NCBI GenBank assembly: GCA_964623775.1
Contig: CAZUVH010000001.1
Location: forward strand, 40,790-104,789
Direction: 5' to 3'
DNA length: 64,000 nucleotides
Origin: an uncultured Candidatus Saccharibacteria bacterium
Lineage (GTDB): Bacteria > Patescibacteriota > Minisyncoccia > Phycocordibacterales > UBA2100
Shown piece after piece: positions 2,041 to 64,000 of the stretch. Under the pieces are notes generated by a model. It was not told the origin of the DNA and did not search any database. It saw only the letters and a program-made list of their open reading frames with translations. The position numbers were made by a program, and so were the translations under genes. Numbering within the stretch: the first letter of the stretch is position 1; each line of letters opens with the position of its first letter.

Positions 2041-2346
2041 TTAACGATCACTGGAACGCATGAGGCCCTTTATGAGAGCACCGACTGTATCGCTCCGGAT
2101 GTACAATTCAGAAAATTGTTCCTGCGAAATATAGTCGAGATCGCGCGAAATCATCAGTTGATTTTGCAATTCAGCGAGAGAGGTCTTCGCCATTGTGTAA
2201 AAGTGAAACTTATCTTTTGAAGAAAAACGGCCAAATCCTTCTGCGATGTTTGATGAAATTGAAACAGCCGCCCGCCTGCTCTGGTTCGCGAGTCCGAACT
2301 TTTCTTCGTTCGGATACTTCTTTGTGATTTTGTAGACAGCAAGCAC
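2041..2346 (-). CDS. four-helix-bundle protein (23S rRNA intervening-sequence protein family)
   Basis: VYKITKKYPNEEKFGLANQSRRAAVSISSNIAEGFGR matches the conserved core of this family. The frame stays open upstream to about 2388 (..FSDLKAWQKSHTF..) with no in-frame ATG. The track start is GTG, so the true N-terminus is uncertain. Confidence 0.65.
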   Translation of the reverse strand: MLAVYKITKKYPNEEKFGLANQSRRAAVSISSNIAEGFGRFSSKDKFHFYTMAKTSLAELQNQLMISRDLDYISQEQFSELYIRSDTVGALIKGLMRSSDR

Positions 2347-2427: not shown

Positions 2428-2455
2428 ACCTGATTTCTCCTACGGAGAAATCAGG
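2428..2455 (-). terminator. hairpin cctgatttctc-ctacg-gagaaatcagg straddling the DKNYY gene stop
   Basis: 11-bp perfect stem seen in the sequence. It may act as a terminator or attenuator inside the pilus operon. Confidence 0.4.
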
Positions 2456-3252
2456 ATTGGCGTCATGTCTGTCTCATCGCTTCCCGGTGTCACCACTGTG
2501 TCCACGATCACGCCGTCATTGAAAAGGTGTGAGCCGTCGACCGCATCCGCTGTCACGGTGCCTGAACCGTCGGATTTCTGAATGACTGTATCTTGAATTA
2601 CATGAAACGTATCGGGGTCGGCACCCACTACGATCACGAGCTCGAGCGTGCACGTCTCTCCCTGGCAGACCCAGCTGACTATATATACGTTGTTCGCGTC
2701 TTTCGCATACGTATCATTGAGAATTTGAAACGTCGCCGGATCGGCTGTGACTACGGTGGAGACCGAGGATTGCGTTGCTCCCGATTCTTGCGTGGTCGAC
2801 TGCGCGACAAAAACCTGGTCATTGTCGCGGTAGTACGTCACTGCAGTTTGCGAACCCGCCCCCGCATTACCAGGACTCTGCACCGACATCTTCTGTATCT
2901 CTGAGAACGTTGCGGGATCAGCCTCAGGTATCAGCGTGTAGGTGCCAGGCGGGGCGAGTTTATTTTTTTGAGTGCCACCGGTGCCCGCCGAAGCGACTGC
3001 GCTCGCGTTGTAGTACATACCTACAGGCGAGGAATAGACGAAGGAATCATACGAGATGAGCGACTGCGTGCCCGAACCATCAATCTCGACTTCCTCAGGC
3101 GCACCAGTCTGTGCAGCGATAGCAGCATTCCTCGCAGTCTCAAGTGATTCTTTGCTCCCGAAAATGTAATAGCTGAAAATACCTATCAGCACACTTGCGA
3201 GTCCGACAATCGCGACGGCGATGAGAGGCGACACTCCTCTTTCATTCGACAT
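2440..3252 (-). CDS. membrane-anchored DKNYY-repeat protein
   Basis: N-terminal TM anchor. Three repeats of the DPATF..I.....AKDANNVYI type (ADPATFSEI, ADPATFQILNDTYAKDANNVYI, ADPDTFHVI), typical of the DKNYY repeat family. Lies between pilB and pilC. Confidence 0.5.
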   Translation of the reverse strand: MSNERGVSPLIAVAIVGLASVLIGIFSYYIFGSKESLETARNAAIAAQTGAPEEVEIDGSGTQSLISYDSFVYSSPVGMYYNASAVASAGTGGTQKNKLAPPGTYTLIPEADPATFSEIQKMSVQSPGNAGAGSQTAVTYYRDNDQVFVAQSTTQESGATQSSVSTVVTADPATFQILNDTYAKDANNVYIVSWVCQGETCTLELVIVVGADPDTFHVIQDTVIQKSDGSGTVTADAVDGSHLFNDGVIVDTVVTPGSDETDMTPILISP

Positions 3253-3275: not shown

Positions 3276-5009
3276 CTACTCTGTAATGACTCTCAAGACC
3301 TCTTCAATGGTGGTGATGCCTTGAGCGGCTTTGAAGATGCCGTCTTCGCTCATGGTGAGCATACCTTCACTGTGCGCCTGCTTCGCGATCTCGTCACCTG
3401 TCGCATTTTTCATAATGAGTTCTTTGATGGTCGACGTGACGTTCATGACTTCGTAGATGCCGATACGTCCTGCATATCCCGTCGCGCACGCGGCGCTCGA
3501 TTTGGGCCGCGCGAACGAAATATTTTTCCACGTCGCGTCTTTTGCGATCACTTTTTCGTCTTTGAGCGCCTTGAGTACGATACCGGGATCGACGATATGC
3601 TCGAGCTGCGCCTGCTCATCGCGCGAAAGTTCGTACATGTCTTTCTCGGCACACAATCTTCGCACGAGGCGCTGTCCGATGACGGTACGCAATGTTGAGA
3701 CGAGGAGGAACGGCTCGATACCCATGTCGAGGAGGCGCGCGACGGCACCCGCAGCAGAGTTCGTGTGGAGCGTCGCGAGTACGAGGTGCCCGGTCAGAGA
3801 TGCATTGATCGCAAGCGACGCGGTCTCCTTGTCGCGGATTTCGCCGACCATGATGATGTCCGGATCCTGGCGCACGAGCGTGCGAAGACCGTTGGCAAAG
3901 GTGAAACCAATATCCGGACGCACCTGCGTCTGATTCACGCGCGCCATCTGGTATTCAATCGGATCTTCAATCGTTGAGATGTTTACGTTGGGCGTATTGA
4001 GGATATCGAGGAGCGTGTAGAGCGTCGTCGATTTACCGCTACCCGTCGGGCCTGTCGTGAGGATCATGCCTGTCGTCTTGCGCATCGCATCGTGCATGTG
4101 CTCAAGACCCGCACCGTGGAAGCCAATGCCCTCGAGTGTGAAGCCGGCGATGTTGTCGCGCAGCAAGCGCATGACGATCTTTTCACCAAAGTATGTGGGC
4201 AATATAGAGACGCGGAATGAAACTTTCTCGCCGCCACCTTCGGCACTGAAGCGACCGTCTTGCGGCAATCTCTTCTCGTCGAGTCGCATATTGGAGAGCA
4301 CCTTGAGGCGCGCAGTGATCGCAGCGGCCGCATGCTTGGGTAGCTCCATCGCATCGTGCAAGATACCGTCGATGCGATAGCGGATGAGGAGCGAGTCTTC
4401 GAGCGGCTCGATATGGATGTCGGACGCACCCTGCGCGCTCGCATGGCGCAAAAGTGTATCGACGATGCGTACCGCCGAGACGCCTTCTGCCATTTCCTTG
4501 AGATCTTGCTCTTTGTCGGAAGTCTTCGAGAGCGCTTCGGTCTCGTGTTTAATCACGTCGCCGAGATTGTCTTTGAGGGATTGTTGGTACTGCTTGAGCG
4601 CAGCCTTGACCGATGCAACATCCGTGAGGCGCGGCAGCACTTTCAGGTGCGTCTTCTTTTTAATGAAGTCGATCGCTGCGAGATCATCGGTGTCGAGCAT
4701 CGCGACTTCAAGCTCATTTGCATGATTACTGTACGCGATGATGTTGTTGCGTCTCGCGACAGGCTCGGGAATGAGTGAGAGTGTTTCGTACTTGATATTG
4801 GTCCCGACGAGCGAGACGAACGGGATACCGAGGATGTATGCATAGGTGCGGCGCAGCTCATCTTCGCCGATCGTATTGTGCGCAGTCAGGATCTCCGAGA
4901 CTGGCTTGCCGCTTTCTTTCGCCTCCTTCTCCGCCGCGTCAAAATCTTTTGCCGACACGAGTCCTGCATCGGCAAGAAACGTCTTCAGGTGCGAATCCGA
5001 AATGTACAT
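3276..5009 (-). CDS. pilB: type IV pilus assembly ATPase PilB (GspE family secretion ATPase)
   Basis: 577 aa with N-terminal GspII-like domain, Walker A GPTGSGKST, Asp box, His box and tetracysteine-like region. Canonical PilB/GspE architecture. Confidence 0.9.
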   Translation of the reverse strand: MYISDSHLKTFLADAGLVSAKDFDAAEKEAKESGKPVSEILTAHNTIGEDELRRTYAYILGIPFVSLVGTNIKYETLSLIPEPVARRNNIIAYSNHANELEVAMLDTDDLAAIDFIKKKTHLKVLPRLTDVASVKAALKQYQQSLKDNLGDVIKHETEALSKTSDKEQDLKEMAEGVSAVRIVDTLLRHASAQGASDIHIEPLEDSLLIRYRIDGILHDAMELPKHAAAAITARLKVLSNMRLDEKRLPQDGRFSAEGGGEKVSFRVSILPTYFGEKIVMRLLRDNIAGFTLEGIGFHGAGLEHMHDAMRKTTGMILTTGPTGSGKSTTLYTLLDILNTPNVNISTIEDPIEYQMARVNQTQVRPDIGFTFANGLRTLVRQDPDIIMVGEIRDKETASLAINASLTGHLVLATLHTNSAAGAVARLLDMGIEPFLLVSTLRTVIGQRLVRRLCAEKDMYELSRDEQAQLEHIVDPGIVLKALKDEKVIAKDATWKNISFARPKSSAACATGYAGRIGIYEVMNVTSTIKELIMKNATGDEIAKQAHSEGMLTMSEDGIFKAAQGITTIEEVLRVITE

Positions 5010-39391: not shown

Positions 39392-39435
39392 GTATACCCC
39401 GCACCACTTTTCAAAAAAAGTGGTGCGGGGTATAC
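39392..39435. promoter_or_regulatory. 20-bp inverted repeat GTATACCCCGCACCACTTTT-caaa-AAAAGTGGTGCGGGGTATAC, with TATACT -10 inside the right arm
   Basis: Perfect palindrome. The right arm ends 8 nt before the ATG of the DksA/TraR-like gene. The same arms recur at 56923-56942 and 57015-57033. Confidence 0.55.
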
Positions 39436-46019: not shown

Positions 46020-47048
46020 TTAGAATGGATTGCGGATGCCGTTGCGGATCTCGAAGTGGAGGTGCGGGCCGGTGGCTTTACCTGTCGCGCCCACGTAGCC
46101 GATCACTTGCCCCTTCATCACATGCTGTGCACCGTATGCCGTAACTCTCGACATGTGGCTGTAGAGCGTCTGGCTGCCGTTGCCATGCTGGATCACGACA
46201 TAGCTGCCGTAGCCGCCGTTGTATCCGCCCTGCTTCGCGATAATCACATCGCCTTCAGCAGACGCGAGGACCGGCGTCCCGACTGGAGCTGCGAGGTCAA
46301 CGCCGTTATACCCGTGCACACCCTGGGTGCGCGTACCGCCGATGAGCGGTCGCAGGTAGTAGCCGATCTCCATAGGATTACCCGCTGGTCCGACGTTGCG
46401 GGCTGGTGCAGTAGAAATCCTGGTCGGGGCAGGGGCGGCAGCGATTTCGCCATCAGGGATGATGATTTCAGCGCCTACGGCGAGCTCGTCGATGCCGTTG
46501 TAACTCGCGATTTCGTCGGCATTTCCGCCGTATTTCTTGGCAATTGATGAAAGCGTGTCACCCTTCTTGACCGTGTATTTGATACCGGTGACAGGGAGGA
46601 TGGTAAGCATTTGCCCGATTTGGAGACTAGAGCCACGGGGGATGTCATTGGCCCAGAGAATGGTGTTGGGGGAGACGTTGAACATCTTGGCGATGCCCGT
46701 TAGGGTATCGCCCGCATGTACGACATACACACTGATGGTCGCGTCTTTCGGTTTCTCAATATCGGCTATCGTGCCCGATGGACCCTCTTCCGGCATGAGC
46801 GCTGTGTCGTCGACGATCGTGATCTCGCCACCGCCACGAGCGGCAGAGGGGTCGATATTCATGGCGGGTCGGAGAAGTGGCATGGTCTGAAGATTGCTCG
46901 TACTTGAGATCGCCTCGGCATCCACCGGCCGGCCTGCAAACATGTCTATAATGTCAGTGAAGACACCTGCATGTACGCGAAACGGTAAGAGCGCGCCGAT
47001 GAGAAGCGTCAAAGAGATGAGTGGGACCGCTGTGCGAACAGCGCGCAA
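46020..47048 (-). CDS. LysM-domain M23 family metallopeptidase
   Basis: Signal peptide, two LysM repeats (YVVHAGDTLTGIA..., YTVKKGDTLSSIA...) and an M23 catalytic domain with the HLHFE motif. Confidence 0.85.
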   Translation of the reverse strand: MRAVRTAVPLISLTLLIGALLPFRVHAGVFTDIIDMFAGRPVDAEAISSTSNLQTMPLLRPAMNIDPSAARGGGEITIVDDTALMPEEGPSGTIADIEKPKDATISVYVVHAGDTLTGIAKMFNVSPNTILWANDIPRGSSLQIGQMLTILPVTGIKYTVKKGDTLSSIAKKYGGNADEIASYNGIDELAVGAEIIIPDGEIAAAPAPTRISTAPARNVGPAGNPMEIGYYLRPLIGGTRTQGVHGYNGVDLAAPVGTPVLASAEGDVIIAKQGGYNGGYGSYVVIQHGNGSQTLYSHMSRVTAYGAQHVMKGQVIGYVGATGKATGPHLHFEIRNGIRNPF

Positions 47049-47314: not shown

Positions 47315-49207
47315 GTGAGTTACATAAATGGCTTAAATGAACGACAAAAAGAGGCTGTTCTCTTGACAGAGGGGCCTCTTTTGATCATAGCGGGTGCCGG
47401 GGCGGGAAAAACGAAAACAATAACACACCGTATTGCGCACCTTATGGCAAGGGGTATTCCTGCTCACCGCATTCTGGCCGTGACATTCACCAACAAGGCT
47501 GCGGGGGAGATGCGTGAGCGTGTCCGTGCACTGCTGGGGGGCCAGTCGGGAATGCCTCTCATCACAACATTCCATAGTTTGGGTGTACGAATCCTGCGCG
47601 AATTCCACCACCAGGCAAACCTGCCGCGCAACTTTTCGATCTGGGATCGCGACGACAGCATCAAGGCGATCAAGAGAATCCAGGGTGGGGCGGAGGAACA
47701 GGGTTACAAGGCGAGCGCGCTCATCTCCGCAATCTCAAGAGAGAAGGGAAACGGCACGTCGGCACGGGAATTTGAGGAAAATGCGAAGAATTTCCGCGAG
47801 AAAGAGCTCGCCCGCATCTGGCGTTCGTATGAAACGGCACTGAAAGAAGAGGGCGCCTTGGACTTTGATGACCTTCTTTTGCATACTGTGACGCTTCTCA
47901 AAGCATCTGAGGCGACCCTGGAGAAACTCCGCGAACGGTACGCTTACATTACGATCGATGAATACCAAGACACCAACAAGACTCAGTACGAGATCGCCCG
48001 TCTCCTTGCAGGGGAGCGCAAGAATATCTGCGTAGTCGGTGACATCGATCAAAACATCTACAGCTGGCGTGGTGCCGATATCGAACACCTTATGTCATTT
48101 GAGAAGTCATTCCCTGGAGCCGCGACCGTGCTTTTGGAGCAAAATTACCGCTCCACCCGCACCATTCTCGCGGCGGCAAACGGCGTCATTTCAAAAAATA
48201 TCCGCCGCAAAGAAAAAAATCTTTTTACCGAGAACGAAACGGGGGAGCCGATCGCGATCTATGGCGCACGCAACGAGATCGACGAAGCGTGGTTTGTCGC
48301 GGCAACAGCACAAAAAATGATCTCGAGTGGTATACCTGCGTCTCAAATCGCCGTACTTTACCGCGAAAATTTCCAATCGCGCGCGATTGAAGAAGCGCTT
48401 CTCCATCTGGAGGTGCCGTATCGCGTCCTTGGTACGCGCTTTTTCGAGCGCAAGGAGGTGAAAGACCTACTTTCGTACGTCCGCGCCGCTCTTAATCCGC
48501 TCAGTAAGGTGGATTTCGCACGCGCCGTCGCTACCCCTTCGCGCGGCATCGGGAAGACGACGCTTGAGAAGGTGTTTGCCGGCCAAGAGGCCGCGCTTCC
48601 TGCCGCTGCGCGCGCAAAGGTCGCGACCTTCAAAGATACCCTCACAAAGATCGCGCACGCGGCAAAGACACTGCCACCATCAGAGGCACTCCGATATACG
48701 CTCGAGGCGAGCGGCATCGAAGTGATGCTCAAGAAAGACGCCGAGGAGGGGAGCGAGCGCATGGAAAACTTGAACGAACTCCTCAATCTCGCGGTACGCT
48801 ACGACGAAATGCTCCCCCCGGAGGGTATCGAGAAAATGCTCGAGGAGGCCGCGCTCCAATCCGATCAGGACGAACTCGCCGAAAAAAGCGACGGCGTCGT
48901 GCTTCTGACAGTACACGCATCGAAAGGATTGGAATTCGACGTGGTCTTCGTGACCGGCCTTGAGCAAGGCCTTTTTCCCTCTCTTCGCGAAGGTACGCGC
49001 GACCCAGAGGAGGAACGTCGGCTTTTTTATGTGGCAATCACGCGTGCCCGAAAGCAGGTATATCTTTCATACGCGCACGATCGCATGCGGTGGGGATCAC
49101 GTGAGCTCACGACACCTTCGGAATTTTTCGACGACATCGACCCGCGACTTATCGTTTCCGTAAACCCCGGCGAGCAGAGTGAGGAGAGTACGATCGAATT
49201 TCTATGA
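47315..49207 (+). CDS. uvrD: ATP-dependent DNA helicase UvrD/PcrA family
   Basis: GTG start. Helicase motifs I (AGAGAGKT), II (DEYQDTN) and III-VI. 630 aa. Confidence 0.9.
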   Translation: MSYINGLNERQKEAVLLTEGPLLIIAGAGAGKTKTITHRIAHLMARGIPAHRILAVTFTNKAAGEMRERVRALLGGQSGMPLITTFHSLGVRILREFHHQANLPRNFSIWDRDDSIKAIKRIQGGAEEQGYKASALISAISREKGNGTSAREFEENAKNFREKELARIWRSYETALKEEGALDFDDLLLHTVTLLKASEATLEKLRERYAYITIDEYQDTNKTQYEIARLLAGERKNICVVGDIDQNIYSWRGADIEHLMSFEKSFPGAATVLLEQNYRSTRTILAAANGVISKNIRRKEKNLFTENETGEPIAIYGARNEIDEAWFVAATAQKMISSGIPASQIAVLYRENFQSRAIEEALLHLEVPYRVLGTRFFERKEVKDLLSYVRAALNPLSKVDFARAVATPSRGIGKTTLEKVFAGQEAALPAAARAKVATFKDTLTKIAHAAKTLPPSEALRYTLEASGIEVMLKKDAEEGSERMENLNELLNLAVRYDEMLPPEGIEKMLEEAALQSDQDELAEKSDGVVLLTVHASKGLEFDVVFVTGLEQGLFPSLREGTRDPEEERRLFYVAITRARKQVYLSYAHDRMRWGSRELTTPSEFFDDIDPRLIVSVNPGEQSEESTIEFL

Positions 49208-50004
49208 AGAAGAACCGGGGGGCACGCAAAGGAGCACGATTGGGTCAGCACTTTCTCACAGGCACCTGGGCTGCTGTGTCGCTTGTGAAAGCGACGGCGA
49301 TGAAGGAGGGTGATATCACGCTCGAGATCGGCCCCGGGAAAGGTGCGCTCACAAAGGAAATTCTCAAGACAGGTGCGCATGTCGTTGCGGTAGAGAAAGA
49401 CGAGGCGCTTGCCGATCTTCTTGCTGCGATATTTTCGAAAGAAATTTTTCACAAGCAGCTGGAAATTGTACGGGATGATGTGCGCAACTTTCTGCCGGAA
49501 AAAGCTGGTTTGCGAGCAGGGGAGTACATACTTGCGGCCAACATCCCGTATTACATCACCGGTGAGATCATACGGCAGTTTCTTTCGTGCAATGTGCAGC
49601 CACACACGATGGCAATCCTCATACAAAAAGAGGTCGCGGAGCGCATTCTCGCGCGTGATGGCAAAGAAAGCATCCTCTCGATCGCGGTCAAAGTGTATGG
49701 CACGCCAAAGATCGCAGCAAAAGTGTCGAGAGGAAATTTCAATCCGCCACCGTCTGTTGATTCCGCGATCCTGCTCGTGACGAATATTTCAAAAAAGTCA
49801 TTCGATGATGTGAGTGAAGAGATGTTTTTTAGAGTATTGCGTGCAGGTTTTTCGTCAAAAAGAAAGTTGCTCGCAAGTAATCTAGGTAATGTGTTTGGGA
49901 GGGAAAGGGTAGACACCGCACTTGAGAACTGCAAGATTCCGGGGAAGGCGCGGGCGGAGGATTTGAAGGTAGGGGATTGGTTGGGGTTGGCGACGAACCT
50001 TTAA
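49204..50004 (+). CDS. rsmA: 16S rRNA (adenine1518/1519-N6)-dimethyltransferase RsmA/KsgA
   Basis: LGQHFL motif and SAM-binding fold. ATGA start/stop overlap with uvrD. Confidence 0.9.
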   Translation: MKKNRGARKGARLGQHFLTGTWAAVSLVKATAMKEGDITLEIGPGKGALTKEILKTGAHVVAVEKDEALADLLAAIFSKEIFHKQLEIVRDDVRNFLPEKAGLRAGEYILAANIPYYITGEIIRQFLSCNVQPHTMAILIQKEVAERILARDGKESILSIAVKVYGTPKIAAKVSRGNFNPPPSVDSAILLVTNISKKSFDDVSEEMFFRVLRAGFSSKRKLLASNLGNVFGRERVDTALENCKIPGKARAEDLKVGDWLGLATNL

Positions 50005-52544: not shown

Positions 52545-53997
52545 CATCACCCTGTATATTGTGGGCGCAGCGCTCGTGCTTTTACTGAGTGCGACGCATA
52601 GTGCATACGCACAGACAGTCCAGTATCCGAGCGGTATCACGACGTGCGAACGCACCGGCGCTGCGGGACTCAGCTCGTCGGTCGGCTCGTTCTCCCCGAT
52701 TGGCGGGCCATATGTGCCGGTCGTCGATTATGCCGTCGAGCTCAATTCAGCAACACTTGTCTACAAAGAATGCGTGCTGCGGCAACTCGTCGATCAGCAA
52801 AGAAAAGCGGCCGTTGCGCTCATCACGAAAGATACGTTGCAAAAATTCATGACACAGCGAAATGGCCGCCCGATGTTCCCGGGGTATCTCCAGGGCGAAG
52901 TCGTCGAGAGAGAGGACGCCGCGATGGCTCGCACACTCAGGAGTCCGTCGCTTGCGACGATCAACCCGGCTTATAAAAACCTGATCCTGGGTGCTATCGC
53001 GCTCGACTACCGCGTCGACACGCGCGCGTACAACAACACAGTTACCTGCCCGTACCAGGGCAACCTCGATACGATACATAAGGCGCGAGATTTTACGTTT
53101 GATGGATTGTGGATAGGGGTGGGCGATCCGCGATGCCGGCCACTCGACGTATACTACCCAGCTTCCGATATCGCACACAACGACGTCGCGCTCGATCAGC
53201 AAGAGATGGGGTATCGCCTTAACACAAGCAATGGCCTCTACGGTCTTGAAGCGATCGATGCAAACGGCAATCGCATCACGCTCACGCCCGGTATATTCAC
53301 GCGCGACGTCGCGAGCCAGGCACTCACATCTGGTTTCCGAATGCTCGAAAGTGCGGATGATGTCGGTGAAGTCGTCGACGCGCTTTTTGCGGCAATGGGC
53401 GATCAAGCTCTCACGAGTGCTCCCGGGGGTGGGACGAGCGGGCTTTCGGGTCTCGGCGGTGGACTCTCGGGCATGATGAATGGTTCCAACAATTACTTCA
53501 ATCAGGTGTTGCAAAGTCAGCTCGGGGGCTTGGGTGGCACGATCACGACCGGTATTCTCGCTACACTGCAAAATCTGCTCGCCAACGAGCAGCTCTACAA
53601 CCAGGTCGTGATCGCGGTAGGACAACTCATTCAAAAAGCGACGGACGATCTCAAAAAATACGAGGCGAAATGCTTCTCCGACACTACGCACTCTGAGCAG
53701 GTTATCAGCACGAATTTTGCTCCAATCGTCGTCGATATCGCCCCAAAAATCGCAAGCTCGACTGCCGCTGTTACTGGCTTGCAGGCACTCATTGCGCAGG
53801 TGAGCGGGCCGAATCCGCCGAGCAATGCGCAGATCACCGCGACGCTCACTTCGCTGGGATTGCACTCACAACAACAAACACAGGCAGAGCAGTCGCGCCT
53901 GCAGACACTCCAGGTCGATATCACACAATTTGTGCAAAATGTCGTTGCCGGCTGGCAAAACAGTGCATCCGTTCCCGTCGGGTGCGGACAACTATGA
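52526..53997 (+). CDS. secreted hypothetical protein with Gly-rich segment
   Basis: Signal peptide MQNAHNITLYIVGAALVLLLSATHSAYA. Internal Met start overlapping the previous gene's end. The track ORF start at 52360 is out of context. Confidence 0.45.
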
Positions 53998-56321
53998 TAT
54001 CCATGACTCACTCATCAAGAATAATTCGCGACGCGATCATCGGAGTCGTTCTTTTCATGAGCATCGCGCTCCCACTCCTCACACCCTCGTACGCTTCGGC
54101 GCAAGCGCCGAGTGGCGGCGCAGCAGCGAGTGTAAACACTCCGAATGCACGGCCGACCGTATGCGACGGCGGATTACTTTCGATGTCGTCTCTTGATCCG
54201 GTGTGCTGGTTCCGCAGAATCACCGCCGCACTCGGCGCATCCATCATACAAATCGCCATATGGGTCCTTACGGTCTCTGGCATGCTCTTCAATCTGCTCG
54301 TGGATCACACGATAATCAACTTTGGACAATTTCTATACGGTAGTGAAATGAAAAGCGCGATCGAGACGGCCTGGACCGCCTTCCGCGACATTTCCAATAT
54401 TGTGATCATCGGCATGTTCGTATTTATGGCGATCATGACAATCCTCGGCAGCATCGACTATGGGTATAAAAAGCTTGTCGCAAAAATCATCATCATCGCC
54501 GTTCTCATCAATTTCAGCCTGCTCTTTACGAAGATTATTATCGATTTCTCGAATTTTGCGGCACTGCAGTTTTACAACGCGGCCAGCCTCCAGGCGAGCC
54601 CCTCTTCTACGGGAGCTGCGACCGACCCAAATACGACACAGCAAAAAGGCATTTCCGGAGCGTTTCTCGACTACATGGGCGTCACCGGCATCGGCGACAG
54701 TTATTCCGCAGTGAGAAAAGTCGCTGAATCGAGCGATAGTGGAGGATTGGCGCTCCTTCATGCGATTATCGCGAGTATTTTTATACTTGCTGCAGCGATC
54801 GTACTCTTCTACGGATCGTTCCTGCTCGCCTCTCGTGCACTGCTTCTGATTTTCCTCCTCCTCACCTCATCCATTGCATTCGCCACATACTTGATACCGA
54901 TTGGGGTTGTGAATTCCACCTGGGGGTGGAAAAAGTGGTGGAGCTCACTTCTTCAAAGCGCCGTCTTCGCCCCGCTTCTCATGATATTTCTGTGGGTAAC
55001 GCTCGCGATTGGGAGGGCACTAAAGGATCAGGCGGGGACGCTCGGCGACCTCCTCACCAACCCAACAAAGGGGGCTAATTATGAGTCGCTCTTTGGCTAC
55101 ATTATAGTGCTCGGGCTTCTCTTCATCTCGTTCAAGATTTCATCAAGTTTTGCGGCCGGCATCGGCGGATTCAATTACGCCGCGATGATACCTGCGGGCC
55201 TCGCCGGGATCGGTGCTCGAGCTGCAGCCATGTCAACAAGATGGACTGTCGGGGCAGGAGGTAGATGGGCTGGTGAAAAACTACAGGCGCAGGCTCGCAA
55301 CACAAATCGTTCTGACTTGAGTAGATCTCTCTTTGATTTCGGCGCAAAACCATTCCAGGCTCTCGCTAAGAAAGACTTCAATCCTTTACGGAACGCGCTG
55401 GGTGGCCAGATGGCAAAGATGGCAGGCCTGAAGAAGGAGACACTCGGTGGTGAAAAGGTTGGCGGATTCGAGGGTACAGTTAAAAATTTCCAGAAGGCGC
55501 TCGGGGAACGAGCAAAGAACATGACTCCGACGAAGGAGGAGTTGGAAAAGCAGCTGGAAGCTCGTAAAGCTGCAACAACCACACTAAAACCTGAGGTTCC
55601 AAAACCATCGACGATGGCTCCGCCCGAGGACAAAAAGAAAGACACTGAGACGGTTCGCGCAGAAGAGCTCAAGGCGTACTTTGACAATAATCCGAAAGAA
55701 AAAGAGGTTCATGAAAAGGCGAAAGAAGAGGTGCACATCAGTAAGGAGGACATGGATGCATCCCGCCGCACAAATGCTGACGTGGTTGCGAAGTTGTCAC
55801 AAAGCATCAAGGGTCTCAAGGAACAGCAGGCTACTTTGCGTAGCAACAAAGCCGACACCGTGGCCATAGCCCGCGCTGATGAAATCCAGAAAAAAGTTTC
55901 GGAATCTAAAGTGGAATTGGGCAGAGCACTGAAAGAGCGGCGCGAACAAATTAGGGAGGCCACAAAAAAATCTCAGGTGGCGGATGAAAAACTAAGAGAG
56001 ATTGAGAAGAAGGCGGTGGACGCGATGCAAGATCGCGTGCGAACACAACAGGAGCAGAACGCGAGCATAAAGGAGAGTGACGTTAAGGAAAAGAATACCA
56101 CAGAGGCCATCGCACAGAGACTTGCCGATAAAAGTCTCACTGGCGTGCTACTGAAGTCGCTTGGGGTGTCGAGTAAATCCCTTTCTAGTGGCGCAGTAAA
56201 ACATCTGAAAGAGCAGGCGAAGAGGGAGCGAGCGAAACTAAATGCTGAGGAGCGTAAGAAACTTGACGACAAAGACAAGCCAAAGAGCGAGCCCCCAGCG
56301 CCTGCTGGCGATAAACACTAA
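53994..56321 (+). CDS. VirB6/TrbL-like polytopic membrane protein with long charged coiled-coil C-terminal tail
   Basis: ATGA overlap with the upstream gene. Signal/TM plus about 6-8 TM helices over ~450 aa, then ~300 aa rich in K/E. This architecture is common in T4SS VirB6/TrbL proteins. Confidence 0.45.
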   Translation: MISMTHSSRIIRDAIIGVVLFMSIALPLLTPSYASAQAPSGGAAASVNTPNARPTVCDGGLLSMSSLDPVCWFRRITAALGASIIQIAIWVLTVSGMLFNLLVDHTIINFGQFLYGSEMKSAIETAWTAFRDISNIVIIGMFVFMAIMTILGSIDYGYKKLVAKIIIIAVLINFSLLFTKIIIDFSNFAALQFYNAASLQASPSSTGAATDPNTTQQKGISGAFLDYMGVTGIGDSYSAVRKVAESSDSGGLALLHAIIASIFILAAAIVLFYGSFLLASRALLLIFLLLTSSIAFATYLIPIGVVNSTWGWKKWWSSLLQSAVFAPLLMIFLWVTLAIGRALKDQAGTLGDLLTNPTKGANYESLFGYIIVLGLLFISFKISSSFAAGIGGFNYAAMIPAGLAGIGARAAAMSTRWTVGAGGRWAGEKLQAQARNTNRSDLSRSLFDFGAKPFQALAKKDFNPLRNALGGQMAKMAGLKKETLGGEKVGGFEGTVKNFQKALGERAKNMTPTKEELEKQLEARKAATTTLKPEVPKPSTMAPPEDKKKDTETVRAEELKAYFDNNPKEKEVHEKAKEEVHISKEDMDASRRTNADVVAKLSQSIKGLKEQQATLRSNKADTVAIARADEIQKKVSESKVELGRALKERREQIREATKKSQVADEKLREIEKKAVDAMQDRVRTQQEQNASIKESDVKEKNTTEAIAQRLADKSLTGVLLKSLGVSSKSLSSGAVKHLKEQAKRERAKLNAEERKKLDDKDKPKSEPPAPAGDKH

Positions 56322-56922: not shown

Positions 56923-57033
56923 GTATACCCCGCACCACTTTTAACACCCGGGCGATGGGCGACTAACTTCATTAAGTTTTGAGTGGCTAGTTATCAACGA
57001 ATTATAAAAGGTTTAAAAGTGGTGCGGGGTATA
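56923..57033. promoter_or_regulatory. inverted-repeat arms GTATACCCCGCACCACTTTT (56923-56942) and AAAAGTGGTGCGGGGTATA (57015-57033) separated by ~72 bp, with TATAAT inside the right arm
   Basis: Same 20-mer arms as at 39392-39435. The right arm ends 8 nt before the ATG at 57042, so the mRNA is essentially leaderless. Confidence 0.55.
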
Positions 57034-57041
57034 ATTACTGA

Positions 57042-57614
57042 ATGCAGTTTCAGGTTCCTCAATTCATCGAGGTGGAGGACAAGATCTTCGGCCCGCTCAC
57101 GTTTAAGCAGTTCATATATATAGGAGGGGGGATAGGGGCAGCTTACTTACTCTGGCGCGTCCTGCCGATGTACGTCGCGGCCCCCATCATTGCGGTAGTG
57201 GGTGGACTTGCCGCAGCGCTTGCGTTTTTCCAATACAACGGGCGTCCATTCATAATAGCGCTCGAAAACGCCTTCTTTTTCCTTGTTCGCAGCAAGCTCT
57301 ACCTCTGGAACAATGAAAACAAGAAAAAGTCACGAGAGGTGGTCGAGCAAAATTTTGCACAGGCGTCTAATCTATATGTTCCGAAACTCTCGGGCAGCAA
57401 GCTGCACGAACTCGCGTGGAGCCTCGACATCAAGGAGCGTATCGCCGGCGGTGTCGCCACAGAGTCCGAGCGCACAGGAAATCGGCCTCCCGAAGATATA
57501 TTGGCTCCCATAAAGACCGCGAGGGCAGCAGCAGCGACCAGAGAGCAATCACTTGCGCAGCAGATTGAGAGCTTGGCACGCCAGCGCGCCAATACTGCGC
57601 CGTCTACACAATAA
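57042..57614 (+). CDS. PrgI-family (VirB3-like) T4SS membrane protein
   Basis: MQFQVPQFIEVEDKIFGPLTFKQFIYIGGGIGAAYLLW matches the PrgI-family N-terminal signature (..VP..I...E.KIF..LT.RQ...), followed by a TM hairpin. Confidence 0.5.
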   Translation: MQFQVPQFIEVEDKIFGPLTFKQFIYIGGGIGAAYLLWRVLPMYVAAPIIAVVGGLAAALAFFQYNGRPFIIALENAFFFLVRSKLYLWNNENKKKSREVVEQNFAQASNLYVPKLSGSKLHELAWSLDIKERIAGGVATESERTGNRPPEDILAPIKTARAAAATREQSLAQQIESLARQRANTAPSTQ

Positions 57615-57616
57615 AT

Positions 57617-58285
57617 ATGCCTCCACAGACATCTCTTCGCTCCAATACGAAATCGACGCAGGAATTCGTTCCGATCTCTGAAGTACGCGACGGTATCGTG
57701 GTTATGAAAGACGGAAGCCTGCGTGGCATCCTCCTCGCCTCATCGATCAACTTTGCCCTCAAATCGGAAGATGAACAGACGGCGTTTATAGTTCAATTTC
57801 AAAACTTTCTCAACTCACTCGATTTTTCGGTGCAAATTTTCGTACAGTCGCGCATGCTCGATATTCGTCCATACATCACCACGCTCGAAGCGCAGTTCAA
57901 ACAGCAGCTCGACGACCTTATGCGCGTACAGATTCGTGAATACATTCAATTCATCAAGAGCTTTACCGAGGCTGCAAACATCATGACGAAAAATTTCTTC
58001 GTCGTTGTACCGTACTCACCGAGTATCGCCGTGACGGCGGCGAGCGCGAGCTCATTCTTGCCGTTTGGAAAAAAGAGCACAAAGGCGGAGGACAACAAGA
58101 CATTCGAGGAACAAGCCTCTCAGCTCGAGCAACGCATCTCGATCGTACAGCAGGGTCTTGTGCGTACAGGCGTACGCACTGTGCAGCTTGGTACCGAGGA
58201 GACTATCGAGCTTCTCTACAAGATGTTCAATCCGGGCGAAGAGGGAAAGCCGATTCCGGTCTCGGAGCTCGCAAATCAAAGATAG
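57617..58285 (+). CDS. VirB4/TrbE N-terminal domain (separate ORF)
   Basis: FVPISEVRDGIVVMKDGSLRGILLASSINFALKSEDEQ..IQIFVQSRMLDIRPY is collinear with the N-domain of Gram-positive-type VirB4 (PrgJ/TrsE). Ends with TAG 1 nt before the next ATG, in a different frame. Confidence 0.6.
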   Translation: MPPQTSLRSNTKSTQEFVPISEVRDGIVVMKDGSLRGILLASSINFALKSEDEQTAFIVQFQNFLNSLDFSVQIFVQSRMLDIRPYITTLEAQFKQQLDDLMRVQIREYIQFIKSFTEAANIMTKNFFVVVPYSPSIAVTAASASSFLPFGKKSTKAEDNKTFEEQASQLEQRISIVQQGLVRTGVRTVQLGTEETIELLYKMFNPGEEGKPIPVSELANQR

Positions 58286-58286
58286 T

Positions 58287-60206
58287 ATGGCACTCCTCGA
58301 CTTATTCAGAAAAAAACCCGCCGCAGACGACGCCGCACGCGTACTGCCGGTTTTGCCCGAAGAAATCTACAATACCGGCGTTCTCGATCTGCAGGACGTG
58401 ATCGCCCCACACGCGCTCAAGGTCAACTCCCGCGAACTCGATCTCGGCGAAAAGATCGCCCGTACATTCTTCGTCATTTCGTATCCACGCTTTCTGACGA
58501 CGGGCTGGTTTGCGCCGATCATCAACATGGACAAAGTGATCGATATTTCGATTTTTGTACACCCGATGGATACGAATGAGATGCTCCGTAAGTTCCAGAA
58601 AAAAGTCGCCGAAGTACAGAGCCAGATCGCGACCCGCGAAGAAAAGGGGATGGTGCGCGATCCAATGCTGGACACTGCATATACCGACCTCGAGCAACTG
58701 CGTAATTCGCTACAACAGGCGCAGGAGCGCATCTTCGAAGTGGGTCTCTACCTTACGATCTACGGCAATTCGCGTGAAGAGATCGATAAGATCGAGAGCG
58801 AGGTCCGTTCGATCCTTGAATCCCGCCTCGTGTACATCCGCCCGGCACTCTTCCAGCAGGAGCAGGGCTTCAGGAGCGTTTTGCCGCTTTCGACCGACGA
58901 GCTTGCGGTCCACACCAAACTCAATTCCGCGCCGCTTTCTTCAATCTTTCCATTCATCTCTTTCGACCTCACGTCCGACCGCGGCATTCTCTACGGCATC
59001 AACAGACACAACTCATCGCTCATTCTTTTCGATCGATTCTCGCTCGAAAACTACAACTCAGTGACGTTTGCAAAATCGGGTGCCGGCAAGTCGTACACGA
59101 CAAAACTCGAAATTCTACGCTCACTCATGTTCGATACAGAGGTGATCGTGATCGATCCTGAGCGTGAATACGAGTATTTGGCGGAGACCGTGGGCGGCCG
59201 CTACTTCAATATTTCGCTCTCTTCCGAACACCACATCAATCCGTTTGATCTTCCGATTCCGCGTGAGGATGAAAATCCGGGCGACATCTTGCGCAACAAC
59301 ATCATCACGCTCGTCGGGCTCTTCCGCATCATGCTCGGAGGACTTACGCCCGAAGAAGATGCTGTTATCGACAAGGCAATCACCGAGACCTACGCGCTCA
59401 AAGACATCACGGCCGATGCCAATTTTGCCGCTGTCGAGCCGCCGCTGCTCTCAGACTTCGAGCTCGTGCTCTCCGGCATGGAGGGAAGTGACTCACTCGT
59501 CGCGCGCCTTTCGAAATACACGAAGGGCACCTGGTCGGGATTCATGAATCGCCCGACAAACGTGGACATGAATAAAAAGTTGATCGTGTTTTCCGTCCGC
59601 GACATGGAGGACGACTTGAAGCCCGTGGCGATGTATATAATCACGCACCACATCTGGAATGCGGTGCGAAAAGAGCTCCGCAAGCGCCTCCTCGTGATCG
59701 ACGAGGCCTGGTGGATGATGAAATCTCAGGATACGGCGAGCTTCCTCTTCGGTATTGCAAAACGCGGACGCAAATACTATCTTGGCCTCTCTACAATCAC
59801 ACAAGACGTCAACGACTTCCTTACATCACCGTACGGGACAGCGATGATCACAAACTCTTCGATCCAGCTACTCTTGCGTCAATCGCCCACCTCCGTCGAT
59901 CTCGTACAAAGCACCTTTAAACTCTCCGACGAGGAAAAGTACCTGTTGCTCGAATCCGACGTAGGGGAAGGCATCTTCTTCGCAGGCCTCAAGCACGTCG
60001 CGATCAAGGTGATTGCCTCTTACACAGAAGATCAGATTATCACCTCCGATCCTTCACAAATTCTCGCGATCAAGAAGGCGAAGCGAGAGCTTGCCGCATC
60101 AACAGAAATTCCTGAAGAAGCGCTCCCTGGTGCGCAGCATGCTGCTCCGGGTGCTGATACTGCACCTGTCTCCAAGATGACTTCGCAGAGTATTTCGACT
60201 CAATAA
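58287..60206 (+). CDS. VirB4/TrbE-family T4SS ATPase (C-terminal two-thirds)
   Basis: P..I..........F.ISYPRFL.TGWF membrane-proximal region, Walker A KSGAGKSYT, Walker B VIVIDPEREY, and C-terminal motifs DEAWWMM and GLSTITQ. The track ORF 58065..60206 starts inside the previous gene. Confidence 0.85.
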   Translation: MALLDLFRKKPAADDAARVLPVLPEEIYNTGVLDLQDVIAPHALKVNSRELDLGEKIARTFFVISYPRFLTTGWFAPIINMDKVIDISIFVHPMDTNEMLRKFQKKVAEVQSQIATREEKGMVRDPMLDTAYTDLEQLRNSLQQAQERIFEVGLYLTIYGNSREEIDKIESEVRSILESRLVYIRPALFQQEQGFRSVLPLSTDELAVHTKLNSAPLSSIFPFISFDLTSDRGILYGINRHNSSLILFDRFSLENYNSVTFAKSGAGKSYTTKLEILRSLMFDTEVIVIDPEREYEYLAETVGGRYFNISLSSEHHINPFDLPIPREDENPGDILRNNIITLVGLFRIMLGGLTPEEDAVIDKAITETYALKDITADANFAAVEPPLLSDFELVLSGMEGSDSLVARLSKYTKGTWSGFMNRPTNVDMNKKLIVFSVRDMEDDLKPVAMYIITHHIWNAVRKELRKRLLVIDEAWWMMKSQDTASFLFGIAKRGRKYYLGLSTITQDVNDFLTSPYGTAMITNSSIQLLLRQSPTSVDLVQSTFKLSDEEKYLLLESDVGEGIFFAGLKHVAIKVIASYTEDQIITSDPSQILAIKKAKRELAASTEIPEEALPGAQHAAPGADTAPVSKMTSQSISTQ

Positions 60207-60553
60207 TGAACTATTCCCGTATCAGCAAGACGACGGGGATCGCCCTCATCGTGGCCGCCACACTCGTTGACCTCGCGCAATTCTTCGCGACATTTCTCGC
60301 GCTTATCCCTTTTATCGGCTTTGTTATTGTCTTCGCTGCAAACACCCTGATCAGTGTGTGTGCGCTCATTTTTTTCGGAATATGCTTTTCGCACGTGGGC
60401 GTGAGCCTACTTGATTCGAGACGCGCCCTCGGGACCCTTGGCACAATTCTTGGAGAGGCGGTGCCGTTTATAAACAGTATGTTGTGGTGGACATGTCTTG
60501 TTTCGTACATTGTCATCACAGAGTGGAGAAAGCCGGAAGGTGCTGTGGAATGA
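60206..60553 (+). CDS. small three-TM membrane protein (T4SS-associated, hypothetical)
   Basis: Start overlaps the VirB4 stop (ATGA-type coupling). Very hydrophobic. Confidence 0.4.
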   Translation: MNYSRISKTTGIALIVAATLVDLAQFFATFLALIPFIGFVIVFAANTLISVCALIFFGICFSHVGVSLLDSRRALGTLGTILGEAVPFINSMLWWTCLVSYIVITEWRKPEGAVE

Positions 60554-60566
60554 GCGGTATAATTAC

Positions 60567-61637
60567 ATGATGCTCGTGGTGCGAAACATCCTAACCACTT
60601 CGCTTTTATCGATTAGCTTTCTTTTGGTTCTCAATCTCCCTGTATACGCGCAACTTGAATTACCGAACATGGCGAGTTCTATATTCATCACCACCATCCC
60701 CGAACATCCTGGGCCGGGAGAGACCGTGCGTGTCTACGCACAAAGTGTTTTCTACGACCTCCTGAAGGCAAACAATGTGTGGGAGGTCAACGGCAAGGTG
60801 GTCGCTCAGGGGATAGGGGTGACGGAGGGCACGTTTGTAGTGGGAGCGCTCGGATCCCGAAATACCGTCGTGTTTGAGGCACAGTCCGATACGAGCACTG
60901 CCAGTGCCCGCCTGACCATCATCCCGACCGAAGTCGACCTCTTGTATGAGGCAAGTTCCTACGTGCCACCTTTCTATCGCGGACGCGCGCTTCCTTCAGA
61001 GGGGACCCTTGTGCGGCTCACAGCCTTGCCGCGATTTCAGAGTTCAGGCGGAAATTTTATCCCTGCCAGCTCTCTCTTATATACATGGAAGCGAAACGGC
61101 TCGACGGTGGCTGCTGTTTCAGGAAGAGGAAAAAGTTCTGCCGTATTTCCCTCGCCGGTTCTTTTTGGTACCGACGTGATCGCGGTTGATGTCACAACAG
61201 CAGATGGCACCATGACTGGCAGTGCACTTATTAATATCCCCTCGACGAAACCCTTGCTTTTACTCTACGAGGATCATCCGCTTTTCGGTGTGACCTATCA
61301 TAAAGCGCTCGGGCCTGCGACTTTCGTCCCTGAATCAGAGGCGACCTTCGTCGCGGTACCGTTTTATACCAATGCAGTGAGTTCTAATGACAATTCGTTT
61401 GACTACAACTGGACCGTCAACGGTCAGCGCATTCCTGCCGATACTGTTAGGAAAGGTTCGATTACAATCAGTTCTGCTGGGCAAAAGACGGGGGTCGCAC
61501 ACGTGCAACTCGATCTCACGCAGCCGCAAAATCCGTTCTTTAGCGCTCGAGGTGAGTGGAGTATTTCTTTCTCCGAAATACGCGGAAACAGGGCTCCCGA
61601 CGGTACAATCAATAATCCATTCTTACCTCGCCAATAA
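60567..61637 (+). CDS. secreted hypothetical protein (beta-rich)
   Basis: Internal Met MMLVVRNILTTSLLSISFLLVLNLPVYAQ acts as a signal peptide. Confidence 0.4.
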   Translation: MMLVVRNILTTSLLSISFLLVLNLPVYAQLELPNMASSIFITTIPEHPGPGETVRVYAQSVFYDLLKANNVWEVNGKVVAQGIGVTEGTFVVGALGSRNTVVFEAQSDTSTASARLTIIPTEVDLLYEASSYVPPFYRGRALPSEGTLVRLTALPRFQSSGGNFIPASSLLYTWKRNGSTVAAVSGRGKSSAVFPSPVLFGTDVIAVDVTTADGTMTGSALINIPSTKPLLLLYEDHPLFGVTYHKALGPATFVPESEATFVAVPFYTNAVSSNDNSFDYNWTVNGQRIPADTVRKGSITISSAGQKTGVAHVQLDLTQPQNPFFSARGEWSISFSEIRGNRAPDGTINNPFLPRQ

Positions 61638-61638
61638 T

Positions 61639-62934
61639 ATGCAAAAGAGCCTGCTCGTCGTTCGATACCTGATAGTCATAGTTGTCGTATTTGCGCTGGT
61701 GGGGTTATTGGGCTGGTATTTCTTCTTGAAGTCCCGCACAAGCACGACTGTCGCGCTTGATGACGCTCGCGGACTTGATTCAACTGCACCTTCGTTTACC
61801 GGAAGCACCGGCAGTACGTACGAAAACATCGCACAAACCACAGTAGAAGATACCGGGCAAGTGAGTGCGGAGACAGTAAGTGCTCCGCCCCAACTCTGGC
61901 GCGTATCACAAACACCGACCTCCGGTATGGGATTCGTGGAGGATAGTGCATTTCTAAAAGTGTATTTTGTCGAACGCGCAAGCGGCAATGTATTTTCTGC
62001 AGATGTCATAAACGGGAAGGTCGAACGCCTCACAAACACACTCTTACCGAGGACATACTCAGCAGCAATAACTCGTGACGGTGCCGTAGCTCTTCGTGGT
62101 ATCGATGACGGGGGCAAAACAACTCTTTTCGCGGGCACTATCCCTCCGAAGACGGCGCCCGCCACGGCCGAGATATCCTCCTCGTCACCTGTGGCGATGA
62201 AAGGCACGAGCCTTGCAGCAGACGTGAGTGACCTCGCAATAAATCCAAAAACGAACGAGGTCTTTTACGTCCTTCCTGATGCAAAAATCGGCGCAATCGG
62301 CATCCGAAGCTCGTGGGATGGGAAGGTGCAAAAGCGTGTACTTGAATCCGGCATTATCGGCTGGCGACCACTGTGGCTCTCCGATGGCCGCATCGTTCTC
62401 ACACAATACCCGGCGTACGATCTTCCCGGTAACGCATACGTGCTTGAGAGTGGGGGTACTTTGACACCACTTATCCGCAACATCCCGGGTCTTACAATAT
62501 TGCCGCGCGCCTCATCGAAGACGTTTGTGTACGGCACTGCGACGGGCGGGACAATCGCAATGTACGTCCAGAAAGAAAAGAAGGAGCCAGAACTACTCCC
62601 AATCAAAACAATTGCCGATAAATGCGTGTGGGCGCCAAAAAAAGAGTTTATTCTTTACTGCGCAGTGCCCCAGACGCTTGGCTCGGGTAATTTCATTGAT
62701 AATTACCTGCAGGGTAGAATTCACACATCCGATACGTGGTGGGAAGTGAACACTGCGGACGGCACTGCACAGATATTCTTTGTGTCGGATAGTTCTTCCG
62801 GGGCGATTGATGTAATTCAGCCGACAATCGACGAAAACGGCAAATACATTTCATTTATGAACGGGTTTGACCAGTCTTTGTGGGTACTTCGGATGCCGAC
62901 CAATACAGAAAACACCGCAGCATCAGTAATATGA
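61639..62934 (+). CDS. membrane-anchored hypothetical protein, possibly beta-propeller-like
   Basis: ATG 1 nt after the previous stop. N-terminal TM LIVIVVVFALVGLLGWYFF, then a ~400-aa extracytoplasmic domain. Confidence 0.4.
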   Translation: MQKSLLVVRYLIVIVVVFALVGLLGWYFFLKSRTSTTVALDDARGLDSTAPSFTGSTGSTYENIAQTTVEDTGQVSAETVSAPPQLWRVSQTPTSGMGFVEDSAFLKVYFVERASGNVFSADVINGKVERLTNTLLPRTYSAAITRDGAVALRGIDDGGKTTLFAGTIPPKTAPATAEISSSSPVAMKGTSLAADVSDLAINPKTNEVFYVLPDAKIGAIGIRSSWDGKVQKRVLESGIIGWRPLWLSDGRIVLTQYPAYDLPGNAYVLESGGTLTPLIRNIPGLTILPRASSKTFVYGTATGGTIAMYVQKEKKEPELLPIKTIADKCVWAPKKEFILYCAVPQTLGSGNFIDNYLQGRIHTSDTWWEVNTADGTAQIFFVSDSSSGAIDVIQPTIDENGKYISFMNGFDQSLWVLRMPTNTENTAASVI

Positions 62935-63443
62935 AAGACAAAATAAAAAAATGGTTTAGGAACATGAGGACCACAAGTTCTGGTCTTCTCTTCCAGGCGA
63001 CGACGCAATTCGTCCCGCTCGCGCCGATAGACGCGCAGCAGGGGAGCAAACTTTCGGGTATTTATACCGGTGGCGATCTTTCGACCTATATCAGTAAGAT
63101 GTTTGTTTTTGCACTCTCAATCGGCGCCATAATCGCCGTGGTTCGTCTCATGTGGGCTGGGTATCTCTACATGGGGGAGGGCACCATCGGGAGCATTTCA
63201 AAGGCAAAGGAGGTCTTTCGTGAGGTTATTATCGGATTGCTGTTGCTGCTCGCAATCTACCTGATACTTCAAAAGATAAATCCACAGCTCTTAAACATTA
63301 CAATTCTCAACAGTATAAAAAGTACGCCGTCGACAGGGCAGCAAGTACCTGCCGGGACACAGAAACAAGGTACTCAAACATGCGGGGGATCGTGCTCGTG
63401 GTGCGACACCGGGACAGGACAGTGCATTATTCCGGCCAACTAA
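62931..63443 (+). CDS. two-TM small protein, candidate VirB2/TrbC-like pilin with Cys-rich C-terminus
   Basis: ATGA overlap with the previous gene. Hydrophobic helices FVFALSIGAIIAVVRLMWAGYLYM and VIIGLLLLLAIYLIL separated by a short loop. Tail CGGSCSWCDTGTGQC. Confidence 0.3.
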   Translation: MKDKIKKWFRNMRTTSSGLLFQATTQFVPLAPIDAQQGSKLSGIYTGGDLSTYISKMFVFALSIGAIIAVVRLMWAGYLYMGEGTIGSISKAKEVFREVIIGLLLLLAIYLILQKINPQLLNITILNSIKSTPSTGQQVPAGTQKQGTQTCGGSCSWCDTGTGQCIIPAN

Positions 63444-63452
63444 GGCGCAATG

Positions 63453-63932
63453 CTACTCTGCCGAGTATTTAATGACTACACGTCTGTTGCGTCCCTCTCC
63501 CTGGGACTCGGTTTTTACGTTGGGGGCGTTTTGCAGTGCTGTGTGGATTATGAGGCGCTCGTATCCTGACATTGGGGTGAGTTCGACATCATACTGGAAG
63601 GATCGGGCGCGTTCGGCCATCATAAGTGCCTTAGTCTCCAGGTCTTTGATCTGCTTTGTGCGGTAATCATTCACATCCACGAGGAACTTAGGCCCGCCAT
63701 CTGACGCTCCTTCACCGGAGGTTTCGGGAGGGAGGCGTTTTTCTGCAATTTTCTTTACCAGAAAATCGATCGCGTGTACCGTATCGCCGTGAGCGCCTAT
63801 AAGTTGGCGAGAGTTGTCTCCGGCTTCGATTGAAAAAATGACCTGCCCCACCGCTTCTACACGGTTGACCTTCGCCGCGCCGAGGCCAAGCGAAGAGAGA
63901 AGTTCCTTGAGGATGGTTTCGATCGTATCGTG
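63453..63932 (-). CDS. khpB: Jag/KhpB RNA-binding protein (KH + R3H domains)
   Basis: Jag N-domain, KH-like region and C-terminal R3H motif (LTPMSGYERLIIHTAL..RRVVI). Confidence 0.7.
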   Translation of the reverse strand, partial: HDTIETILKELLSSLGLGAAKVNRVEAVGQVIFSIEAGDNSRQLIGAHGDTVHAIDFLVKKIAEKRLPPETSGEGASDGGPKFLVDVNDYRTKQIKDLETKALMMAERARSFQYDVELTPMSGYERLIIHTALQNAPNVKTESQGEGRNRRVVIKYSAE

Positions 63933-64000
63933 CATGCAGGGCACTATACGCCTTTTTTAGCGAATGAGCAAAATTGGCGGCTTGTTTTACAGCGCCGGGC

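Follow-up and report, generated by a model that had tools for sequence, protein, structure and literature searches.

TrsD is a free-standing homologue of the VirB4 N-terminus that adjoins virB4 in Patescibacteria and is otherwise confined to the pGO1 subclass of MPF_FATA (PMC12102498, Microbial Genomics 2025). With 2,272 homologues, 1,664 of which are virB4-associated, it is the most abundant type IV secretion system (T4SS) component recovered in Patescibacteria; it is essential in Ca. Southlakia epibionticum and is listed with 'no function assigned' (PMC12102498). In the R388 system, VirB3 wraps the N-terminal domain of VirB4, which mediates VirB4 dimerisation, and this domain comprises residues 15-400 of TrwK (PMC9259494). 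Both TrwK and the fused CD1110 VirB4 of Clostridium are single polypeptides. In contrast, the 64,000-nucleotide (nt) stretch of DNA analysed here (the window; positions 40,790 to 104,789 of contig CAZUVH010000001.1) encodes two polypeptides, open reading frames (ORFs) N and C, which jointly cover the whole protein collinearly. The locus is a chromosomal T4SS cluster of a Kaiserbacteria/Paceibacteria-type Patescibacterium. We consider it highly probable that the pair is a genuine, conserved two-gene VirB4, formed by a TrsD-like protein and a short VirB4, with an inferred assembly of both products on PrgI and an inferred coupling by re-initiation.

The gene order is that of pGO1/pSK41 (MPF_FATA, pGO1 subclass), in which a VirB3-like gene is followed by a protein of ~225 amino acids (aa) and a DUF87/VirB4 ATPase of ~650 aa. 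The pSK41 products measure 135 aa, 227 aa (TrsD) and 672 aa (TrsE), and those of the window are PrgI, 222 aa and 639 aa. The two systems differ in certain respects. The sequence identity of pSK41 TrsD to ORF-N is very low, with a phmmer alignment that covers residues 13-93 only, and pSK41 is a conjugation system carried on a plasmid and equipped with a relaxase and a VirD4-like coupling protein, whereas the locus of the window lies on the chromosome. Neither a relaxase nor a coupling-protein family was matched by the ORFs scanned at 37-64 kb. The Patescibacteria T4SS clade (PMC12102498) is closer still: the window is an instance of it, with a TrsD homologue adjoining virB4, PrgI/VirB3 and a VirB2-like pilin, and no substantive difference from the TrsD-VirB4 pairs of that clade was found. 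The arrangement is therefore the published TrsD plus VirB4 architecture, already known and normal in Patescibacteria, neither recent nor unusual. No papers were found under the phrase 'split VirB4', and the literature describes the arrangement under the name TrsD.

Results

ORF-N and ORF-C each carry one part of VirB4

ORF-N (57617..58285, plus strand, 222 aa) ends in ...ELANQR at the stop codon TAG (58283-58285). After a 1-nt spacer (T at 58286), ORF-C (58287..60206, plus strand, 639 aa) begins with MALLDLFRK at the ATG at 58287, in frame +1 relative to ORF-N, so that the junction reads TAG-T-ATG (58283..58289). The coordinates, lengths and peptides given for both ORFs in the initial annotation agree with the sequence. 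An upstream extension of ORF-C to the TTG at 58065 was dismissed as coding, because the opening point of this frame varies freely among relatives.

ORF-C is a short VirB4, which consists of the second half of the N-terminal domain and the RecA-like C-terminal ATPase domain. The Walker A motif AKSGAGKS is located at residues 262-269 (nt 59070-59093) and the Walker B motif LLVIDE at residues 468-473 (nt 59688-59705). Over residues 232-587, ORF-C is homologous to the solved structure 4AG5 of the VirB4 C-terminal domain (E 1e-43), and a match to TrwK (E 1e-6) is aligned from TrwK residue 300 onward. Pfam assigns P-loop_TraG (E 1.6e-24), AAA_10 and DUF87 to ORF-C, and the NCBIfam model NF045971 (CD1110 VirB4-like family) scores 359.7 bits, above its curated cutoff of 325. 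ORF-C spans positions 185-733 of the 752 positions of the CD1110 model, and positions 2-119 are covered by ORF-N. Beginning at fused-VirB4 residue ~213, ORF-C carries no complete N-terminal domain on its own polypeptide.

ORF-N is a TrsD-like equivalent of the first ~200 VirB4 residues, that is, of the first half of the N-terminal domain. It matches NCBIfam VirB4 models at their N-termini only (CD1110 positions 2-119; TIGR00929 positions 3-178), and shares with TrsD/TraD the homology to the N-terminal portion of VirB4. The TrsD/TraD model NF041427 aligns at E 1.6e-7, with residues 7-131 placed onto model positions 8-142 of 201. The TrsD/TraD layout, in which the gene of a free-standing protein of ~200-230 aa follows a VirB3-like gene and precedes a short VirB4 gene, is also observed here. 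PF26593 (TraC-like N-terminal domain) is present in the precomputed annotation of all 120 listed ORF-N homologues, which are up to 91% identical to ORF-N (one truncated entry, 100%). ORF-N itself gave no match to the local Pfam copy, which apparently lacks the PF26593 model, even at E 10. A sequence search of the PDB with ORF-N returned a chance match only, to Vps28 at E 0.18.

The two products are complementary to a fused VirB4

The fused VirB4 used as reference was the 797-aa CD1110-family protein of Clostridium botulinum pCDC3897. By BLASTP, ORF-N residues 7-210 align to its residues 20-199 (E 3e-15) and ORF-C residues 33-567 to its residues 213-757 (E 2e-86). These alignments run collinearly without overlap. 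Because they end and start at these positions, the break maps to fused residue ~200-212, within a linker that is short and variable. The initial annotation had placed the break between the N-terminal domain and the membrane-proximal region. However, ~230 residues of ORF-C precede its ATPase domain and the TrwK N-terminal domain extends over residues 15-400, which places the break inside the VirB4 N-terminal domain and not at its edge.

A fused counterpart exists in another Patescibacterium. The natural TrsD-VirB4 fusion P0266 (797 aa; locus L086:544-2937 of CAZTUR010000004.1) is preceded by PrgI and followed by R3H/Jag-YidC-RnpA-RpmH-DnaA. Its N part occupies residues 6-211, and its C part, which begins at residue 226, is 56% identical to ORF-C. 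ORF-N aligns to this fused Patescibacteria VirB4 over residues 1-210 (E 9e-47, BLASTP). A fusion in the same synteny is Rosetta-stone evidence that the N and C products would work as one unit.

Alternatively, ORF-N could be a VirB4 N-terminus paralogue that has its own function as an independent accessory factor. Such a role is consistent with the N-proteins of other phyla, which carry extra C-terminal extensions of ~120 aa, and with ORF-N representatives that reach 443 aa. On the other side, ORF-C is without exactly the segment that ORF-N matches, the matches of the two products to both the hidden Markov models and the fused VirB4 are non-overlapping and collinear, and the natural fusion joins the two parts through a linker of ~14 residues. 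We regard an independent function of ORF-N as unlikely; its alignments indicate that ORF-N is the missing piece of VirB4 and not an extra paralogue.

At the level of fold, an AlphaFold2 model of ORF-N was compared with the PDB by Foldseek. Its best 14 matches are without exception TrwK/VirB4 chains from R388 (E 1e-3 to 8e-2; template modelling score 0.40-0.48), and the next matches drop sharply to unrelated folds. The model was built from a 51-sequence alignment of shallow diversity (mean column identity 75%), and the fold search thus lends weak support.

The split is maintained among relatives

Species-level genome loci (80 in total, 78 of them scorable at the junction) were collected from Kaiserbacteria/Paceibacteria-type Patescibacteria, all represented by independent assemblies. 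In 78 of the 78, the N gene ends in a stop codon and an ATG is aligned to the MALLD start of the window. The spacer between the two genes measures 1 nt in 15 loci, 2-6 nt in 22, 9-21 nt in 8, 70-98 nt in 27, 134-175 nt in 3 and 411 nt in 3; the window-type junction TAA/TAG-T-ATG is present in 15 related genomes. The frame of the C gene relative to the N gene is +1 in 34 loci, +2 in 23 and 0 in 21. The last sense codon of the N gene also varies (CAA, AAA, GAA, GCA, AAC or AGA).

Comparison with relatives gave nonsynonymous (pN) and synonymous (pS) values of 0.137 and 0.742 for ORF-N (pN/pS 0.18) and of 0.071 and 0.714 for ORF-C (pN/pS 0.10). Both ORFs are under strong purifying selection, with saturated synonymous sites. 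Low pN/pS at saturated pS indicates that both genes are maintained by selection. More than 8000 homologues of ORF-N were found, and the best 120 listed, all from Kaiserbacteria/Paceibacterota-type Patescibacteria, are free-standing and 193-240 aa long. An exhaustive search of 50%-identity cluster representatives recovered 2374 proteins at E<=1e-3; among the best 150 of these, 149 are 146-443 aa in length and the remaining one is fused.

These data bear directly on the alternative that the initial annotation had left beside a functional split, namely a recent frameshift or nonsense mutation (a pseudogene), or an assembly or sequencing error of 1-2 nt, in a once-fused virB4. The two ORFs lie in different frames with 1 nt between them, an 862-aa product would result from a single-base change that joined them, and fused VirB4 is known both in Clostridium and in one Patescibacteria relative. 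Nevertheless, the stop codon and the aligned ATG recur in all 78 independent assemblies with many different spacers, both halves show low pN/pS at saturated pS, and 149 of the 150 best cluster representatives are free-standing. The probability left to a recent lesion or an error is negligible. The comparison of split and fused orthologous clusters that had been proposed as a check thus yielded 78 split loci out of 78 scorable, and the functional split, which had been only slightly favoured, is now well founded on its conservation and on purifying selection.

A programmed +1 frameshift or a bypass of the stop codon at the TAG could also produce a fused VirB4, either in addition to the separate products or in their place. 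The stop-1 nt-ATG geometry of the window and 15 relatives would permit this, since a +1 shift gives the in-frame sequence ...ANQR-S-MALLD.... However, no conserved slippery site and no upstream Shine-Dalgarno stimulator was observed, and the last sense codon is not constant. In relatives, spacers of 2-411 nt, all three frames and stop-rich inserts occur, and no single recoding rule fits them. Recoding is accordingly considered very improbable. Taken together, the conserved stop and ATG, the variation in spacer, frame and last codon, and the low pN/pS exclude frameshift mutation, assembly error and programmed frameshifting as accounts of the junction.

The same breakpoint is used in distant systems

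A tblastn search against plasmids revealed the order PrgI, N-protein (~330-350 aa) and DUF87 ATPase (~635-660 aa) in Paenibacillus polymyxa, in Miltoncostaea (Actinomycetota) and in the archaeon Haloprofundus. In the Haloprofundus halobius plasmid (NZ_CP083668.1, 38839-41792; locus L084), a 349-aa N-protein is separated by 2 nt from a 633-aa 'transfer complex protein'. The start position of the ATPase is common to pSK41, Paenibacillus, Miltoncostaea and Haloprofundus, with subject residues 13-33 aligned onto ORF-C residues 8-39; in pSK41 TrsE, residue 27 is aligned with ORF-C residue 30 (E 2e-36). The position of PrgI upstream of the N-protein is found in Paenibacillus and Miltoncostaea as well, and PrgI also lies upstream of the fused gene in the Patescibacteria locus L086. 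The breakpoint is thus common to different domains of life, and the split is either ancient or recurrent at one structurally permissive linker.

In C. botulinum pCDC3897 (L083:2936-3922), a 328-aa hypothetical protein is encoded between PrgI and the fused virB4. This protein showed no match to ORF-N by BLASTP (E<=1e-3) or by phmmer (E<=1).

Translation signals and a proposed assembly

The stop codon of PrgI lies 2 nt before the ATG of ORF-N. Tight junctions occur throughout the operon: the PrgI junction reads TAA-at-ATG (57612-57619), a TA[A]TG overlap is located at 60204-60208 and a TAAtATG junction at 61635-61641. No Shine-Dalgarno motif was found at any examined operon junction or cluster gene, and the GGAG nearest to the ORF-C ATG ends 19 nt upstream of it. 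A TATAAT sequence is observed 8 nt before the ATG at 57042 (57034-57044) and another 3 nt before the ATG at 60567 (60554-60572). Leaderless or very short-leader mRNAs and Shine-Dalgarno-independent initiation are suggested for the source organism. The stop-start geometry had been taken as a sign of translational coupling; this argument holds, but it is not specific to the N/C junction, since the other operon junctions are alike.

Translation of ORF-N and ORF-C would proceed from a single operon mRNA that has no Shine-Dalgarno sites. A ribosome that terminates on ORF-N would most likely re-initiate at the ORF-C ATG, as at the other junctions, and such re-initiation would yield roughly equal amounts of the two proteins. 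The two polypeptides may then bind each other non-covalently and so restore a complete VirB4 N-terminal domain. By analogy with R388, the rebuilt domain would dock the ATPase hexamer to PrgI, which is encoded directly upstream. This physical assembly of the N product, the C product and PrgI is proposed from the R388 structure (PMC9259494) together with the natural fusion.

Several observations weigh against this two-gene interpretation. ORF-N scores 31.4 bits against the TrsD/TraD model NF041427, far below the curated cutoff of 200, which indicates remote homology only. A comparison of the ORF-N family with the single pSK41 TrsD sequence by hhalign was poor (probability 1.7%). Confidence in the AlphaFold2 model of ORF-N is low (predicted local distance difference test score 59.5), which renders the fold match weak. 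Finally, 70-411 nt separate the N and C genes in 33 of the 78 relatives, and tight stop-start coupling is therefore not required for function.

Hairpin and 23S_rRNA_IVP elements

In relatives, hairpin elements have a hot spot at the N/C junction, and some of them contain a 23S-rRNA-IVS-protein gene. An insert of 70-98 nt that folds into a long hairpin was observed at the junction in 27 of the 78 related genomes (loci L005, L007, L011, L013, L014, L017, L024, L026, L029, L030, L032, L033, L035, L041, L048, L050, L054, L059, L065, L068, L071, L074-L077, L079 and L080). These inserts lie between the N stop and the C ATG, at about locus positions 4640-4760. The left arm begins at the N stop codon and is rich in TAG/TAA, and the arm sequences differ among genomes. 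In many of the inserts the loop is A-rich and includes a TACAAT-like box, and an ATG is present in most. The inserts could be internal promoters, RNase III sites or remnants similar to miniature inverted-repeat transposable elements.

In three further loci (L027, L057 and L072; 4670-5084), the insert measures 411 nt and contains a 117-aa 23S_rRNA_IVP gene (PF05635, E 2e-14), which is co-oriented with the operon. In this cassette, inverted repeats flank a gene for a four-helix-bundle IVS protein, and its location is between the TrsD-like gene and virB4, not in rRNA. The short hairpin inserts may be deletion derivatives of such cassettes. ORFs of the 23S_rRNA_IVP family are known from rRNA insertions of Patescibacteria-type bacteria (PMC11270868); inverted-repeat-flanked IVP cassettes between protein-coding cistrons were not found described in a literature search that was not thorough. 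Insertion of an element with an IVP gene was dismissed as the cause of the split, since Bacillota, Actinomycetota and Archaea share the breakpoint and lack such elements.

The break could also be functionally exploited. A separate N subunit, present on only some VirB4 protomers or independently expressed, would then control the assembly of the ATPase on PrgI, and the junction hairpin and IVP elements, many with a TACAAT box, would act in relatives as internal promoters or RNase III sites that uncouple the cistrons. This extension of the two-gene VirB4 is regarded as speculative and improbable.

The window carries an IVP cassette of its own at 2002-2429, in which 18-nt inverted repeats (94% complementary) surround 392 nt. 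Its 23S_rRNA_IVP gene (2041-2346, minus strand) matches PF05635 at E 3e-31 and shows a weaker bAvd-like match. The flanking ORFs of 404 aa (771-1985) and 270 aa (2440-3252) are both on the minus strand. A 110-nt hairpin with perfect 21-nt arms and a 68-nt loop is located upstream of PrgI (56924-57033). Its predicted RNA fold has an energy of -48.1 kcal/mol (z -6.5), and its right arm supplies the TATAAT located 8 nt before the PrgI ATG. A second copy of the arms, with a 4-nt loop, is found at 39392-39435. The arms of this genome-specific repeated hairpin read TATACCCCGCACCACTTTTAA. The hairpin could be a combined terminator and promoter, or a mobile hairpin. Several relatives carry the arm sequence of their own hairpins again at further intergenic positions of the locus. 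Across the window, an Rfam scan returned four tRNAs only, with no known RNA family at the junction or at the hairpins.

Gene neighbourhood

The gene directly upstream of ORF-N (57042..57614, plus strand; stop TAA at 57612-57614) encodes a PrgI-family (VirB3-like) membrane protein (Pfam PF12666, E 4.8e-11). Further upstream in the same gene cluster, the ORF list contains a large membrane protein, polytopic and with a charged tail at its C-terminus (53982..56321, plus strand), for which no Pfam match was obtained. It is possibly a VirB6-like channel component by analogy, and the place of its gene agrees with the published Patescibacteria T4SS repertoire (PMC12102498). Downstream of ORF-C, a small membrane protein of 115 aa (60206..60553, plus strand), also without a Pfam match, has an ATG that overlaps the ORF-C stop by 1 nt. 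The cluster ends with a candidate VirB2-like T4SS pilin (62931..63443, plus strand), whose start is uncertain (ATG at 62931 or 62964) and whose match to PF18895 (T4SS_pilin; E 1e-5, 26.0 bits) is just below the cutoff of 26.6.

The wider context, with an M23/LysM peptidase (46020-47045, minus strand) and KsgA (49204-50001), agrees with PMC12102498. An R3H/Jag gene is located at 63453-63941 on the minus strand. Its presence implies that the origin region lies just beyond the window, and this neighbourhood adjoins dnaA in the related locus L086.

Discussion

Beyond the published description (PMC12102498), the present analysis adds the explicit complementarity of the pair to a fused VirB4, a census of the junction spacers and one fused exception; this contribution is small. 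Annotators should name the two genes TrsD-like VirB4 N-terminal subunit and short-form VirB4, with no pseudogene flag and no merging of the ORFs. The rare fused gene of locus L086 could serve as a natural control for the comparison of split and fused function.

Few systems have been shown to be essential to the epibiotic lifestyle of Patescibacteria, and the T4SS is one of them (PMC12102498). From the finding that TrsD and the short VirB4 jointly correspond to one canonical VirB4, a concrete structural hypothesis follows, in which TrsD would supply the half of the N-terminal domain that binds VirB3 and mediates dimerisation.

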